From Escherichia phage vB_EcoM_SA20RB: a stretch of 64,000 nt of DNA. The position numbers were made by a program, and so were the translations under genes. Below, piece by piece: positions 39,012 through 44,279 of this stretch (position 1 is its first letter; each line of letters starts with the position of its first letter). The stretch lies in sequence record OL960581; one strand, written 5' to 3'. A model generated the notes under the pieces. That model ran no database searches. It was given only the letters and a program-made list of their open reading frames with translations, and had not been told where the DNA came from.

Positions 39012-39320
39012 TTAGTCTTCTATGATATCTCTATCATATCCAAGTGAAATGAGAGTTTCTTTGAAGTGTTTAATGTTCTTTTGTCTAGAATCATTGATGA
39101 AAATGACTGGATAACGAATGTTAAGAGATGTGAATCCAGCGCGTTTAGCAAGAGATACAATCAGTGGACGATCATACTCAATCTTACCATTATTTGTAAG
39201 AACTTTATAGAAAGTAAAAGGAGCATTGAGCTCCTTTAGAAGTTTTGTAACTGATTGACATCCAGGACAACGACCTACTTCATCTGGAATTCCATAGACT
39301 TCAATCTTATTTTGTTTCAC
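39012..39320 (-). CDS. nrdH: NrdH-like glutaredoxin
   Basis: 102 aa; CPGC redox motif; slot upstream of the 55.x genes. Confidence 0.82.
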   Translation of the reverse strand: MKQNKIEVYGIPDEVGRCPGCQSVTKLLKELNAPFTFYKVLTNNGKIEYDRPLIVSLAKRAGFTSLNIRYPVIFINDSRQKNIKHFKETLISLGYDRDIIED

Positions 39321-39650: not shown

Positions 39651-40121
39651 TTAATCATGTTTCCACACCCCATCGGTATTTGACCAAAGTCGCTGATTAT
39701 CTGATCCTCGCCACAGCTTTTTGGTAGGAAGATTTTTCTCATACTTCCCATCAATAATAACATCAACATATTTAAGCATTTCTAGTTGTTTAATATCTTC
39801 AAATTTATATCCTGTCCACAACCAAATGCTTTTATTGGAATAAAGATTTTTTACTGTTTGAACCACAGAGTGAATAACATCTCGGTTATCAGGATAGAGA
39901 GGGTCTCCTCCAGTTATAGTTAATCCTTCTATATAATCATTATTCAAACATTCAATTAATTGTTCTAGTGTTTCACCAGTGAATGGAACACCATTTCTAG
40001 CATTCCATGTTGATTTATTATAACACCCTTCGCATTTATGCAAACAACCTGTAACGAAAAGAACTGTCCTGCATCCAGGACCATTAACAAAGCAGCATGG
40101 GTATATTCTGTCATAATTCAT
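39651..40121 (-). CDS. nrdG: anaerobic ribonucleotide reductase activase (radical SAM)
   Basis: 156 aa; radical-SAM-type Cys cluster CLHKCEGC (Cx3Cx2C); the T4 NrdG length. Confidence 0.92.
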   Translation of the reverse strand: MNYDRIYPCCFVNGPGCRTVLFVTGCLHKCEGCYNKSTWNARNGVPFTGETLEQLIECLNNDYIEGLTITGGDPLYPDNRDVIHSVVQTVKNLYSNKSIWLWTGYKFEDIKQLEMLKYVDVIIDGKYEKNLPTKKLWRGSDNQRLWSNTDGVWKHD

Positions 40122-40950
40122 TTATATATTTCCAATTATAGCCTTCAACACTTTTACGTTCGCCATTTAAACATTTTAAAATATTTCCTTTGCTAGAAAT
40201 ATTAAAATATTTTGCTGCGTCTGGTATATAATTAAATGTTTTTAAAAGAACACCATCTTTATATGCGCCAAATAAATTAAGAGTATATTTTTCTCGAAGA
40301 CGCTGATGTTTCCTTTTCATAACCTCAGGATTTGCATACGCCAACCTCAATGAATTTCTATGTTTTTCTTTTACTTCAGGTTTTTGCATTGCTAACTTAG
40401 TTAGCCTGGAAATTTTATTTCTAACTTCGTCAGTTTTCATTGCATTTGACAAATTTAATAAAGTTTTATTTCTAACTTCAGGTTTTTGCATTGCTAACTT
40501 AGTTAGTTCTCTATGTCTTTTTCTAAAATCGTCATCCTTCCATATATTTTTCGATAATTTTGACATAGAGCGGTGAAATAATTCCTTTTCACTGGAATAC
40601 AATTTAAAAATTTCATCCAATTCATCCGCATTAAATCTATCGGTATTCGAGTTTATCATTCTATGAAAGGCATAACACATTTTACTATTGCTTGTTTTAG
40701 CTAAATAGTAATGAGCTAACGCATGGTCATAATATGACAAATTAACAATATTCCATTTATCTGTTTTATATTCAGGAAATATAGATTTGGGAAGCACGTG
40801 ATGTGCTTCCGTTTTTCCTTTTATTTTAGGATTATTATAATTTTTTGTTATCAAATCAACATATGACAATAGTAAATCATTATTTTCTTCAAATATTAAA
40901 GCTAATTTATCATTCACAAAATCGCAAGGATAAAATCTATCGTAATTCAT
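40111..40950 (-). CDS. free-standing HNH homing endonuclease (mobC slot)
   Basis: 279 aa; HNH motif AHHVLPKS...NIVNLSYYDHALAH; repeated ..LTKLAMQKPEV(R/K).K NUMOD-like modules; lies between nrdD and nrdG. Confidence 0.82.
   Translation of the reverse strand: MNYDRFYPCDFVNDKLALIFEENNDLLLSYVDLITKNYNNPKIKGKTEAHHVLPKSIFPEYKTDKWNIVNLSYYDHALAHYYLAKTSNSKMCYAFHRMINSNTDRFNADELDEIFKLYSSEKELFHRSMSKLSKNIWKDDDFRKRHRELTKLAMQKPEVRNKTLLNLSNAMKTDEVRNKISRLTKLAMQKPEVKEKHRNSLRLAYANPEVMKRKHQRLREKYTLNLFGAYKDGVLLKTFNYIPDAAKYFNISSKGNILKCLNGERKSVEGYNWKYINEL
40373..40506 (-). repeat. 32-nt perfect direct repeat inside the HNH gene (copies 40373-40404 and 40475-40506)
   Basis: acttcaggtttttgcattgctaacttagttag occurs twice, 102 nt apart, encoding LTKLAMQKPEV twice. 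Confidence 0.85.
40909..40950 (-). repeat. diverged duplicate of the nrdG 5' end (compare 40080-40121)
   Basis: ATGAATTACGATAGATTTTATCCTTGCGATTTTGTGAATGAT versus ATGAATTATGACAGAATATACCCATGCTGCTTTGTTAATGGT. Confidence 0.75.
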
Positions 40951-42226
40951 TGGTGTTTAACCCTATGCATGATTTCTTTATTTTTTCCGAGATTAAATCC
41001 GCGTTCATTCGGATTTCCCAAATAACCACAAGTTCTTCTTATTGTGTTCATCTTTTTAGGATCAGTTTCTCCACAAATAGAACAAACAAATCCGTTTTCA
41101 GTAGGAGTCATTTCATGTGTACTTCCACATGTAAAACATTTATCTACTGGCATGTTAACACCAAAATAATCTAAATGTTGTGCAGCATAATCCCATACAG
41201 CCTCAAGACCTTTTAAGTTATTTTTCATATCAGGAAGTTCAACATAAGAAATGTGACCACCTGTCGCAATGAAATGATATGGGGCTTCGCGAGAAATCTT
41301 TTCAAATGGAGTGATATTTTCTTCTACTGAAACATGGAAACTATTAGTGTACCAGCCTTTATCAGTAACATCTTTTACACTTCCATATTTTTCAGTATCA
41401 AGTTTACAGAAGCGATAACAAAGGTTTTCAGCAGGTGTAGAATACAAGCTAAAAGCAAAACCAGTTCTTTCAGTCCACTGCTTAAGACGAGCATTCATTT
41501 TAGTTAAAATTTCCTGTCCAATATCACGACCGACAAGAATATTCAATTCGTGAATACCAATGTATCCTAGGGACACTGAACTTCTACCGTTTTTAAATAA
41601 CTCAATTATGTCGTCATCAGGTTTAAGACGAACCCCGAATGCACCTTCTTGGTAAAGAATAGGAGCAACAGTAGCTTTAACTCCTTTTAAGGAACTAATT
41701 CTACACATCAATGCTTCAAAACATAAATCCATTCTCTCATTGAACAATTCGGCAAATTTCTGTTCATTGAACTGTGTTCCAATATAAGAATCTAATGCGA
41801 TACGAGGAAGATTCAGTGTTACAACACCAAGATTATTACGTCCATCAAGAATTTCATTACCAGTCGAATCTTTCCATACGCTCAAGAAACTACGGCAACC
41901 CATTGGAGAAACAGGAACAGATGAACCAGTGATAGCTCTATTGTTCTTAGCTGAAATAATATCAGGATACATCCTTTTGCTTGCACACTCTAGAGCAAGC
42001 TGCTTAATATCATAGTTCGGATCGTCTTTGTAAAGATTAACACCTTCTTCAACGAACATGACAAGTTTAGGGAAAATAGGAGTTATCCCATCACGACCAA
42101 GACCTTTGATACGATTTTTCAGAATTGCTTTCTGAATCATTCGTTCAGTCCAGTCAGTTCCCGTACCAAATGTAATTGTTACAAAAGGCGTTTGACCATT
42201 AGAGCTGAAAAGTGTATTTACTTCAT
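40947..42226 (-). CDS. nrdD: anaerobic ribonucleotide reductase NrdD, exon 2
   Basis: …EVNTLFSSNGQTPFVTITFG… through the glycyl-radical end RRTCGYLG; exons 1+2 sum to 605 aa, the T4 NrdD length. Confidence 0.88.
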
Positions 42227-43271
42227 CATTATATTCAGCATGAGTCGCAAATTCATGCCCGTTTATATGAAACAACAAAATTTGGATAGTCCATAGATAT
42301 GCAACGTTCTTTTATAGTGCTAGGATGAAAATTTAGCGCTTTAGCTGCTTCTATATAAGACGTATACTTAATACCGTCAACAACCACATATTCAGGAACT
42401 TTATGAATAGTAGTCTTAATACTCAAAACAAGAGGATGAGTTTCGACTTCACTTTCAGTGCAATTTAAATATTCCGCTGCTTTTTTAAAACTTCTAAAAG
42501 TTTTATTTTTAAGCTTTATCGATACTTGTTTTTTACTTTTTCGACTATTGATATTATTTTGCACATGTTCCTTAGATCTTCCGTTTTTAGCATAATATTC
42601 AGCTACAGAAGATTTTATATTGTTTTTATGAGATTCGGATAACACTTTACCCTTATGAGCATCTCTTAATTTTTGAATATGTTCTTCAGTATCCGGATGC
42701 TTATAAAACTTTTTACCGCCTATGGATTTATTTAAACATTTTTTGCTATAAAAATATTTACGTATGACCTCTTCTTCATGTTTTAATGCATCTTTATAAC
42801 TATCAAATGTTTTTAAAATTATCCATTTAGTAGGTGTATCAGTTTTTAAGCGTTCATTTATATACTTAGATGACGTTGTGTAAGTTTTCCAGTTTGTGGG
42901 CTTGTTTTTAATTGTTCTAAATTTTTTATAACCGATATAAATGTCGCCATTAGAAAACTTAACTAAGTATGTAAATGCGTCTTTATCTTTTATTTTAGTA
43001 CAACGTCTTTTTATCCATTTCATTGTTTCACCTCGTATTCATAAGATAATCTTATTTATACAAGATGACTGCTGCATGTCGCCATGCAGATTAGACTATA
43101 TCTTCATCTTTCGATGCCGGCCGTTTCGAATAGCATTAGCTTCTATTCTACACCGTTACATTCATCACGGTTAGTCGTTAGGCATTTAGTTCAAAAGAAC
43201 ATTTAGCACGGGATTGTCTACTAGAGAGGTTCCCCGTTTAGACCGGTTTTACATGAGCCTGAATTAAATTA
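42227..43271 (-). mobile_element. group I self-splicing intron in nrdD (sunY-type) carrying the I-TevII ORF
   Basis: Exon 1 frame stops 2 codons after ...AFQAYE. The intron core has ctaaacggggaacctctctagtagacaatcccgtgctaaat, typical of T4 introns. The 5' splice site follows a U and the intron ends in G. Confidence 0.85.
42253..43023 (-). CDS. I-TevII: intron-encoded GIY-YIG homing endonuclease I-TevII
   Basis: 256 aa; NGDIYIGYKK GIY-YIG motif; located inside the nrdD intron. Confidence 0.85.
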   Translation of the reverse strand: MKWIKRRCTKIKDKDAFTYLVKFSNGDIYIGYKKFRTIKNKPTNWKTYTTSSKYINERLKTDTPTKWIILKTFDSYKDALKHEEEVIRKYFYSKKCLNKSIGGKKFYKHPDTEEHIQKLRDAHKGKVLSESHKNNIKSSVAEYYAKNGRSKEHVQNNINSRKSKKQVSIKLKNKTFRSFKKAAEYLNCTESEVETHPLVLSIKTTIHKVPEYVVVDGIKYTSYIEAAKALNFHPSTIKERCISMDYPNFVVSYKRA

Positions 43272-43809
43272 ACTCATACGCCTGGAATGCATCGTATACG
43301 TCTTTTTCTGTTTTAGACTGGGCATAATTCAACGCATCAGCGATTTGCCATTTTTCTGCATCCTCAATATGTTTTGCATAGGTGCGTTTAACATAAGGAG
43401 AAAGTACTTTATCTACATTAGCAAAAGTCGTTCCGCCGTACTGATGTGAAGCAACCTGTGCAGTAATTTGTGCCATAATTGCAGTAGCAACGCCAATTGA
43501 TTTAGGAGTTTCAATCTGTGCATTGCCGAGCTTAAATCCGTTCTCAAGCATTCCTTTTAAATCTACTAAACAGCAATTAGTAAATGGAAGAGCAGGGGAA
43601 TAATCAATATCGTGGAAATGGATAATTCCGCTTTCATGCGCTTTCATAATAAAAGACGGGACCATATTTTTGGCAATGTGTTTAGACACAATACCAGCCA
43701 TAAGGTCCCGTTGAGTTGGAAAAACACGAGAATCTTTATTAGCATTCTCGTTCAAAAGGTCTTTATTAGTTTTATGAATCAATCCTTCAATTTCTTTTTC
43801 AATTGTCAT
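43272..43809 (-). CDS. nrdD: anaerobic ribonucleotide reductase NrdD, exon 1
   Basis: MTIEKEIEGLIHKTNKDLLNENANKDSRVFPTQRDLMAG...; ends at GAG-U just before the intron. Confidence 0.88.
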
Positions 43810-44279
43810 TTTAAACTCTTTCTAAGCTGCTTCTTAAATGAAGCTATTAATTGTGTTTTAGTGTCAGATTCATTATATTCAAATCCTCTTTGAAGCATCT
43901 CAGCCATCATTTCCTCTTTTCCTAAACGAGAAAATTCCTTTGATTTATCTCCAACGAAGTTAGGGTGAATATTATTTTGGGTGTAATCGGATTTTAAATA
44001 AGTAAGTAAATTTTCTAACCATTCAAGATAATCAACGCCTTGTCCCTTTAAGCCAGAACGATTAAATTTGTGCTTCATTTGACCTTCCGCTGCATTGCAA
44101 AGATTACAGAGCAATCCACGTACCTTTCCTGCTTTTGGTCCATTTAATTCATGGTCATGGTCAAGGTGATTAGCTTGAACATCAGGATTTAGTTCTCGTT
44201 GGCAAATTAAGCATTTACCGTTTTGTGCATTATAAAATTTCTGTTTTTCTTCTTTATATAATTTGCCAGTCAATAACAT
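43806..44279 (-). CDS. 49: endonuclease VII (Holliday junction resolvase)
   Basis: 157 aa; MLLTGKLYKEEKQKFYNAQNGKCLICQRELNPDVQANHLDHDHELNG. Confidence 0.93.
   Translation of the reverse strand: MLLTGKLYKEEKQKFYNAQNGKCLICQRELNPDVQANHLDHDHELNGPKAGKVRGLLCNLCNAAEGQMKHKFNRSGLKGQGVDYLEWLENLLTYLKSDYTQNNIHPNFVGDKSKEFSRLGKEEMMAEMLQRGFEYNESDTKTQLIASFKKQLRKSLK

Follow-up and report, generated by a model that had tools for sequence, protein, structure and literature searches.

The nrdD-nrdG locus and its two nrdG starts

We examined a 64-kb stretch of the genome of Escherichia phage vB_EcoM_SA20RB (OL960581; the whole stretch is referred to as the window, and positions are counted from its first letter), in which an open reading frame (ORF) for an HNH-type homing endonuclease lies between nrdD and nrdG. 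All features discussed are on the minus strand, and their coordinates are collected in Table 1. The region is 98-98.5% identical to that of Tequatrovirus phages, e.g. OMNI12 and Yersinia phage PST, and the ORF is annotated in PST as 'mobC: homing endonuclease'. The C-terminus of nrdD (...KNKEIMHRVKHQ followed by the stop) is the same in the window and in phage IME339, whose nrdD-nrdG site is empty, and the NrdG of the window is 97% identical to that of IME339, apart from residues 6, 10, 19 and 95.

Table 1. Features of the nrdD-nrdG region of the window, from high to low coordinate
Feature	Position	Strand	Remark
Endonuclease VII (gp49)	43806-44279	-	
nrdD exon 1	43264-43809	-	
I-TevII, 256-aa GIY-YIG ORF in the nrdD intron	42253-43023	-	annotated so in PST and T4
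nrdD exon 2	40947-42278	-	stop TGA 40947-40949 overlaps the endonuclease ATG (40948-40950) as ATGA
HNH-type homing endonuclease ORF, 279 aa, MNYDRFYPCDFVND...	40111-40950	-	
L copy: resident unaltered nrdG nt 1-40, now endonuclease start codon and codons 1-13	40911-40950	-	empty-site identity
HNH motif region, residues 48-80 (EAHHVLPKS...N67...H76...H80)	40711-40809	-	aligns with the T4 MobC HNH motif
Five ~17-aa helical repeats (NUMOD3-like), residues ~140-222, presumed DNA-binding modules	40285-40533	-	AlphaFold; 51-nt periodic repeat D3
Internal direct repeat, copy 2	40465-40506	-	perfect 32 nt at 40475-40506
Internal direct repeat, copy 1	40363-40404	-	perfect 32 nt at 40373-40404
C-terminal NUMOD1/I-HmuI-like helix-turn-helix region, residues 237-272	40135-40242	-	below Pfam threshold
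Putative mobile cassette, 829 bp: endonuclease codon 14 onward and substitute nrdG nt 1-40	40082-40910	-	absent from empty sites; copy spacing 829
11-nt ORF overlap, ATGAATTATGA	40111-40121	-	holds the nrdG ATG 40119-40121; endonuclease ...NEL ends at TGA 40111-40113
R copy: substitute altered nrdG nt 1-40 (MNYDRIYPCCFVN), heads functional nrdG	40082-40121	-	mismatch clustering
R-core, nrdG nt 16-30, includes Asp10 to Cys	40092-40106	-	nt 18, 24, 28, 29 disjoint from native alleles
nrdG, 156 aa, intact, MNYDRIYPCCFVNG..., anaerobic ribonucleotide reductase activase	39651-40121	-	Pfam Fer4_12 2.4e-48
nrdH	39012-39320	-	
gp55		-	listed after nrdH in gene order

The 279-residue ORF starts MNYDRFYPCDFVN and nrdG starts MNYDRIYPCCFVN. 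The two starts match at 31 of 42 nt and at 11 of 13 residues; third codon positions account for 7 of the 11 mismatches, and in codon 10 no position is shared (GAT vs TGC). When both strands of the window were scanned with the nrdG 42-mer, the endonuclease start was the sole outlier (31/42, binomial P ~6e-10), the next site reaching 26/42, and a repeat search paired 40082-40122 with 40911-40951 at a spacing of 829. The resemblance pointed out in an earlier note on this DNA, with many but not all differences at third codon positions, is therefore real, and it is the best non-self match in the window. The same note had described a common junction at both ends of the endonuclease gene. ATGAATTAYGA does occur at both (40940-40950 and 40111-40121), and the nrdD stop overlaps the ATG of the HNH ORF; at the far end, however, the HNH stop does not lie over the nrdG ATG, since the endonuclease TGA forms nt 9-11 of nrdG, which gives an 11-nt overlap of two ORFs read in different frames. 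The I-TevII gene in the nrdD intron is an ordinary T4 feature that lies outside this finding.

Empty sites, relatives and the encoded protein

Comparison with empty sites shows which of the two copies is the original. In IME339 nrdD is followed directly by nrdG, the stop of the one overlapping the start of the other as ATGA, an arrangement also found, as the earlier note had supposed, in T4-type loci and in ~623 phage records with a contiguous junction. The IME339 nrdG start, ATGAATTATGATAGATTTTATCCTTGCGATTTTGTGAATGG (MNYDRFYPCDFVNG), matches the endonuclease start of the window at 39 of 40 positions; it is not matched in this way by the nrdG of the window. Nine T4-type empty loci from IMG/VR agree with IME339, and in one of them (L015) the nrdG start is 40/40 identical to the endonuclease start. 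The copy at the endonuclease start (L copy) also varies among occupied genomes as the resident population does, as seen between the window and PST. All 28 empty loci compared, which represent several T4-like genera, encode Asp10, and the Cys-Cys version found at the head of the window's nrdG (R copy) occurs in none of them. Between occupied and empty nrdG genes, 8-11 mismatches fall in nt 1-40 vs 8-18 in the other 431 nt (Fisher P ~1e-6 to 3e-6), and the similarity between empty and occupied sites extends 40 nt beyond the ATGA before it breaks inside codon 14 (GGY to GAT). Because the L copy is 39-40/40 identical to empty-site nrdG, it is the original nrdG start in its original place, and R is the altered copy. 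The layout pairs a native terminus, equal to the one in element-free relatives, with an inserted, divergent copy that runs on into the rest of the gene. The endonuclease lacks a separate start and begins, by in-frame fusion, with the ATG of the resident nrdG and its first 13 codons. The 829-bp cassette ends in a substitute nrdG 5' end (R), which restores a complete nrdG ORF. Judged together with the account of homing and immunity given below, it is probable that the cassette interrupts the nrdG coding sequence behind nt 40, in codon 14, and does not stand in an intergenic position. An imperfect 10-bp hairpin or palindrome (AATGGYCCTGG..CAGGRYCGTT; 40062-40085, minus strand; nrdG nt 37-60) spans this point and is also conserved where the site is empty; a single compensatory change in it, of a C-G to a U-A pair, is linked to Val19/Thr19 variants.

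The same arrangement is found in a second genus. Ten Klebsiella phages, Jiaodavirus where taxonomy is given and including Mexia, Roth04, UTI-K1 and KP01, carry an ortholog with 85.7% protein identity. Their endonuclease starts ATGAATTTCGACAGAATCTACCCTTCTGACTTTGTGAATG (MNFDRIYPSDFVN) and matches the empty-site nrdG of the same genus (L029/L037) at 38-40 of 40 positions, with 40/40 in Mexia and Roth04, so that an nrdG-like start recurs in other copies of the endonuclease; this recurrence and the ATGA overlap of empty sites, both of which the earlier note had made its proposal depend on, are present. The nrdG behind the Klebsiella-phage endonuclease again starts MNYDRIYPCCFVN, its protein is identical to the resident one from residue 14 on, and the junction ...GTGAATG/ATAA... 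is identical in both genera. Since L matches each genus's own nrdG while R is alike in both, L tracks the resident genome and R travels with the endonuclease. A long co-conversion tract in the Klebsiella-phage nrdG was considered and rejected, the protein being of resident type from residue 14; the extension seen with megablast is the conserved 5' third of nrdG. In these phages a 72-aa ORF, not nrdD, directly precedes the endonuclease, and as it overlaps the start, the captured initiation site would there be coupled to a different upstream gene. This ORF (DUF7415) lies between nrdD and nrdG in Jiaodavirus (L003 3736-3954; L051 2811-3029) and shares a 29-nt overlap with the start of nrdG or of the endonuclease.

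Between the window and Mexia, nucleotide identity is 84.9% in the cassette, 68.9% in nrdG from nt 41 onward and 74% at the 3' end of nrdD, and the ratio of nonsynonymous to synonymous substitution rates (dN/dS) of the endonuclease is 0.085, i.e. purifying selection. These values indicate a functional protein that would have moved between the genera after their divergence. The endonuclease always lies between nrdD (or the 72-aa ORF) and nrdG, in 21 Tequatrovirus and 10 Klebsiella-phage records vs ~623 empty ones; this is the presence/absence polymorphism at a fixed site, with horizontal spread, by which homing genes are recognised. Searches for further occupied sites gave empty ones only in IMG/VR and no relatives in JGI metagenomes, and the window has no second copy of the endonuclease.

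The earlier note had placed the insertion exactly at the ATGA overlap of nrdD and nrdG, with the nrdG initiation region duplicated in the event and the endonuclease-side copy recoded afterwards. The overlap in empty sites and the occurrence of ATGAATTAYGA at both ends of the gene are what such an event would leave, but in two genera it is the endonuclease-side copy that is 39-40/40 identical to empty-site nrdG and the nrdG-side copy that is divergent, and the similarity of empty and occupied sites persists 40 nt past the ATGA. We give this course of events hardly any probability. The site lies after nt 40 of nrdG, in codon 14, and the second start is not a duplicate made on insertion, as the cassette brings its own substitute 5' end.

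The protein itself resembles HNH endonucleases. H50, H51, N67, H76 and H80 are invariant across 9 homologs, PHROG searches matched phrog_655 (5.7e-37) and phrog_12434 'HNH endonuclease' (4.7e-15), and T4 MobC, which passes the Pfam HNH model (27.6 vs 21.4 bits), matches across the motif with 38% identity over 60 aa (E 1e-7). The window protein gave no match to Pfam HNH and none in a PDB sequence search, and in a Foldseek search of the PDB with its AlphaFold model (predicted local distance difference test score, pLDDT, 77.7) the best hit, I-HmuI (1u3e), was not significant at E 0.79. The model places helices at residues 140-153, 157-170, 174-188, 191-206 and 208-222. Homolog P0007 passes the Pfam models NUMOD1, NUMOD3 and the I-HmuI-like one, and NUMOD3 was detected only there; residues 237-272 of the window protein reach 21.1 bits for PF22083 (cutoff 27) and 17.3 bits for NUMOD1, also below cutoff, and are 50% identical to the C-terminus of the VR7 HNH protein. 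The perfect 32-nt internal repeat that the earlier note had reported stands at the positions it gave, while the DNA-binding modules that it was said to encode are presumed ones. The repeat sits in a 42-nt repeat of 90% identity with a spacing of 102 and encodes LTKLAMQKPEV twice; the Mexia counterpart is nearly perfect (28/29 by eye). One endonuclease variant (P0002/L050, Logan contig 975-1770) has lost precisely the 102 nt that separate the two 32-nt copies, and the repeat is therefore recombinogenic. The gene of the VR7 homolog lies elsewhere, between 49.3 and 49.1, and its N-terminus is unrelated; among paralogs at other loci (T6-type, VR7 and others) none has an nrdG-like N-terminus.

If the L copy were a dead nrdG remnant standing in frame by chance, the endonuclease would be made from an internal start (e.g. 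TTG at codon 28) or would not be expressed. The lack of a canonical Shine-Dalgarno sequence before the L-copy ATG and the low confidence with which the first 4 residues are modelled both agree with this. However, the in-frame fusion is kept in 31 records from two genera, no ATG but that of the L copy precedes the HNH motif, initiation at codon 28 would lose the predicted helix of residues 9-20 (block pLDDT 88) and part of a region conserved among paralogs, and the dN/dS of 0.085 argues for expression. A chance remnant is therefore improbable, and the fusion is better read as the working start of the endonuclease.

The altered nrdG start and the proposed homing

We compared 13 R-type alleles with 23 native alleles of the 'YP.D' type from several genera, and nt 18, 24, 28 and 29 proved fully disjoint between the two sets. 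As these positions lie outside the 11-nt ORF overlap, the coding of the endonuclease C-terminus does not explain the changes. The replacement of TGC-GAT by TGC-TGC looks like a codon copy, as far as the letters tell, and not like three independent substitutions. A 70-nt R-type query found 91 phage records at >=90% identity, and in ~70 of them, as in T6, the gene between nrdD and nrdG is that of SegH, an unrelated GIY-YIG endonuclease, and no L copy is present. SegH and the R block also occur together in Moonvirus phage KM16 and, on a T4-reference-type nrdG body, in a metagenome contig. Three of the ~623 records with a contiguous junction (U5, ESh24 and ERS-1) have the R block and no endonuclease; in these the site may be empty and resistant, or may have lost an endonuclease. 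U5 (L047 2526-2570), ESh24 (L054 361-405) and ERS-1 (L053) show a native nrdD end, the ATGA overlap and an R-type nrdG start. The block is short, ends by nt 40, stands on at least four nrdG backgrounds and is nearly always beside an endonuclease. The R-core pattern was found 0 times in IMG/VR, 0 times in GTDB genomes and once in JGI metagenomes (the segH contig). This distribution fits a cleavage-resistant allele that would be under selection.

In the homing that we propose, the enzyme would cut native nrdG near nt 40, within a site spanning ~nt 16-55. Repair from an occupied genome would keep the recipient's DNA up to the break and copy the endonuclease body and R, so that both the L copy and everything from nt 41 on would be resident, which is what is seen. 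The occupied genome would be immune at the L junction by the absence of the right half of the site, and at the R junction by mutation of the left half (nt 18, 24 and 28-30, with Asp10 changed to Cys). For both junctions to be protected, the site would need nt 18-30 as well as nt 41 onward.

Alternatively, R might be no adaptation to immunity: a donor lineage outside the sampled phages could natively have this nrdG 5' end, and co-conversion could have carried it over with whichever endonuclease came from there. That two unrelated endonucleases have it in common would suit such an origin, as would the mosaic T4 nrdG (nt 91-330), which shows long co-conversion or recombination tracts at the locus. 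Yet no R-type start on a uniformly diverged nrdG turned up in IMG/VR, GTDB genomes or JGI metagenomes, the sole match being the segH contig; R is short, does not extend past nt 40 and is found on four different nrdG bodies; and the changed bases never vary in the 23 native alleles of several genera. On this evidence we regard a donor-lineage origin as unlikely, and a resistant allele as the better reading of R.

Translation would run as a coupled chain from nrdD to the endonuclease via the ATGA, and on to nrdG via the stop that lies 8 nt past the nrdG ATG. Ribosomes would re-initiate at the endonuclease after nrdD, as they would at nrdG in empty sites, and then at nrdG after the endonuclease; nrdG expression would therefore depend on an open endonuclease ORF. 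Given that the endonuclease occupies the native nrdG initiation site, inherited coupling to nrdD is structurally plausible. In every variant the endonuclease stop lies <=10 nt from the nrdG ATG, and most copies have TGA at nrdG nt 9-11; in KP01 (L044 1874-1900) and L050 a TA insertion in a (TA)n run shifts the stop to a TAA directly before the nrdG ATG. No good Shine-Dalgarno sequence precedes either the endonuclease or the nrdG ATG, and a scan for promoters and terminators gave no excess over shuffled sequence. RNA folding at the window's two junctions was like that of shuffles (z 0.67 and 0.21), and an RNA alignment of empty junctions showed almost no covariation. The empty junction of IME339 (L001 1963-2082) folds at -33.2 kcal/mol (z = -2.9) with the start codon inside the structure.

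These foldings bear on a further explanation, namely that the R changes act on translation or on RNA structure and not on nuclease immunity: nrdG nt 21-33 of empty sites would base-pair, around the start codon, with the 3' end of nrdD, and the new upstream context would remodel that pairing. RNAalifold predicts a helix in 11 empty sites with nt 24 and 28 in its 3' arm, and the IME339 junction folds unusually well. The helix, however, has no compensatory changes and is not the minimum-energy fold of single sequences, U5, ESh24 and ERS-1 combine a native nrdD end with the R block, and replacing all three bases of the codon for an invariant Asp would be an odd way to alter a helix. A role of this kind has a low probability in our estimation.

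Several points weigh against the account of insertion, homing and resistance given here. The R block is not exclusive to this endonuclease, as it also occurs with SegH (~70 genomes, two genera) and in three endonuclease-free genomes, and such shared occurrence does not by itself settle the origin of R or the enzyme it would protect against. The flank boundaries at nt 40 could stem from later recombination that trimmed the flanks, and not from the position of a cut. Cleavage by the endonuclease, its homing and the immunity of its host are predictions from sequence, and its membership of the HNH group is argued from the PHROG matches and a transitive match, the Pfam HNH and PDB fold searches having given no significant match. 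As to coupling, Shine-Dalgarno sequences and RNA structure gave nothing clear for it or to exclude it. A shared DNA-binding domain of SegH and the HNH protein was considered as the cause of the shared R block and rejected, as the two show no similarity.

A more general idea, which we put forward tentatively and think doubtful on balance, is that R may be a portable resistant 5' end traded among HNH, SegH and endonuclease-free phages of three genera. It would then be a mobile immunity allele of nrdG, and the endonuclease would live on the captured start and its coupling.

Other endonucleases at the junction and known systems

At least three different endonucleases use the nrdD-nrdG junction. 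Counted by records, ~623 junctions are empty, 71 hold SegH, 32 hold T4 MobC, and 21 hold the endonuclease of the window type, to which the 10 Klebsiella-phage records are added. T4 MobC (NP_049689, 210 aa, H-N-H; MNYDRIYSNLVNS...KDEL followed by the stop) lies at the same locus and shares part of the arrangement: it is of HNH type, its ATG stands on the native nrdG start in an ATGA overlap with the nrdD stop, it begins MNYDRIY, and its stop falls at nrdG nt 9-11, 11 nt into nrdG. It is nevertheless another protein, with 38% identity over 60 of the 279 residues of the window protein, and its 32 records (tblastn) do not overlap with the 21 and 10 of the window gene. HNH genes of unrelated loci align with it at the N-terminus, from residue 1 on, the KP27 (Slopekvirus) homolog starting MNYQKIY, and T4 nrdG keeps Asp10 with synonymous changes only. 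As its N-terminus aligns at other loci, we do not claim start capture for T4 MobC, and its resemblance to nrdG may be partly native to its family. The window gene was also considered as an ortholog of T4 mobC (NC_000866), and rejected on the short match and the separate tblastn hit sets; the 'mobC' label in PST reflects position only. The ortholog of UTI-K1 (L043 1613-2449) is annotated 'ribonucleotide reductase class III activating protein', perhaps from its nrdG-derived first 13 residues. Annotations should accordingly be treated with care, as the gene is labelled mobC by position and ribonucleotide reductase activase in one genome.

SegH of T6 and its relatives (Sandegren, Nord and Sjoberg 2005, NAR 33:6203) uses the same junction, with a stop that overlaps the nrdG ATG and with the same R-type nrdG start in Tequatrovirus and Moonvirus KM16. 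It differs in being an unrelated protein of no detectable similarity, in having neither L copy nor duplication, and in that the last ~22 codons of nrdD are replaced (..GTPSVVPWNLGKMKEMVKRVKHA followed by the stop) the boundary, ~66 nt upstream of the stop, being sharp. A 10-mer, CATGCATAGG, contains the segH ATG and is also present near the native nrdD end (T6 L046 1440-1510; KM16 L049 1080-1215). SegH reportedly cleaves its own DNA as well as segH-less DNA, and a simple immunity role of the R block toward SegH would therefore not fit. The reference T4 nrdG (L045, NC_000866, 4447-4917; compared with L003 and L029) is a mosaic, with nt 91-330 of Jiaodavirus type (26-30 matches per 30 nt) and nt 331-471 of Tequatrovirus type, which suggests exchange between genera at an endonuclease hotspot. 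A T4 review describes mobC as a free-standing insert between nrdG and nrdD, uncharacterised and with an unknown target (PMC2988022).

Phage free-standing endonucleases are described as intergenic. The insert of the window would instead lie inside nrdG, a gene that would survive only through the 13 codons re-supplied to it. For this uncharacterised endonuclease we predict a target in native nrdG at ~nt 16-55, a cut near nt 40 and resistance through nt 18, 24 and 28-30. The arrangement suggests how a selfish gene with neither promoter nor ribosome-binding site may secure its expression, and that the endonuclease ORF would be hard to lose, as nrdG translation may depend on it. A literature search, made without the full text of Sandegren et al. 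2005, found no description of an nrdG-derived endonuclease start in phages, and it found no published data on cleavage or homing by the window protein; a 2013 survey of phage ribonucleotide reductase genes found no interrupted nrdG (PMC3653736).

Two phage systems are comparable in part. The MobA/gene 60 bypass cassette of T4 is an HNH endonuclease cassette inside a host coding sequence (10.1101/2022.08.31.505936), and MobE of Aeromonas phage Aeh1 splits nrdA (PMC3045599). Like the cassette proposed here, both are HNH endonuclease cassettes that land inside a coding sequence with extra sequence that preserves host function; there, however, the host gene is split into two polypeptides or needs bypassing, whereas nrdG stays whole with its first 13 codons re-supplied. 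The closest architectural precedent is in fungal mitochondria, where mobile ORFs come with a foreign gene end, as in atp6 of Allomyces macrogynus and in atp6, atp9, cox2 and nad3 of Glomus (PMC3630166). There too an endonuclease ORF lies within a host gene and is flanked by two copies of the terminus, the native one identical to that of element-free relatives and the divergent inserted one joined to the gene body (PMC3630166). The phage case is its mirror image, with the 5' end of the gene replaced and not the 3' end as in fungi; its host is not an organelle, and its endonuclease is HNH and not LAGLIDADG or GIY-YIG. Finally, the displaced native piece is a dead remnant in the fungal elements, whereas in the phage the endonuclease takes its start codon and initiation region from it.

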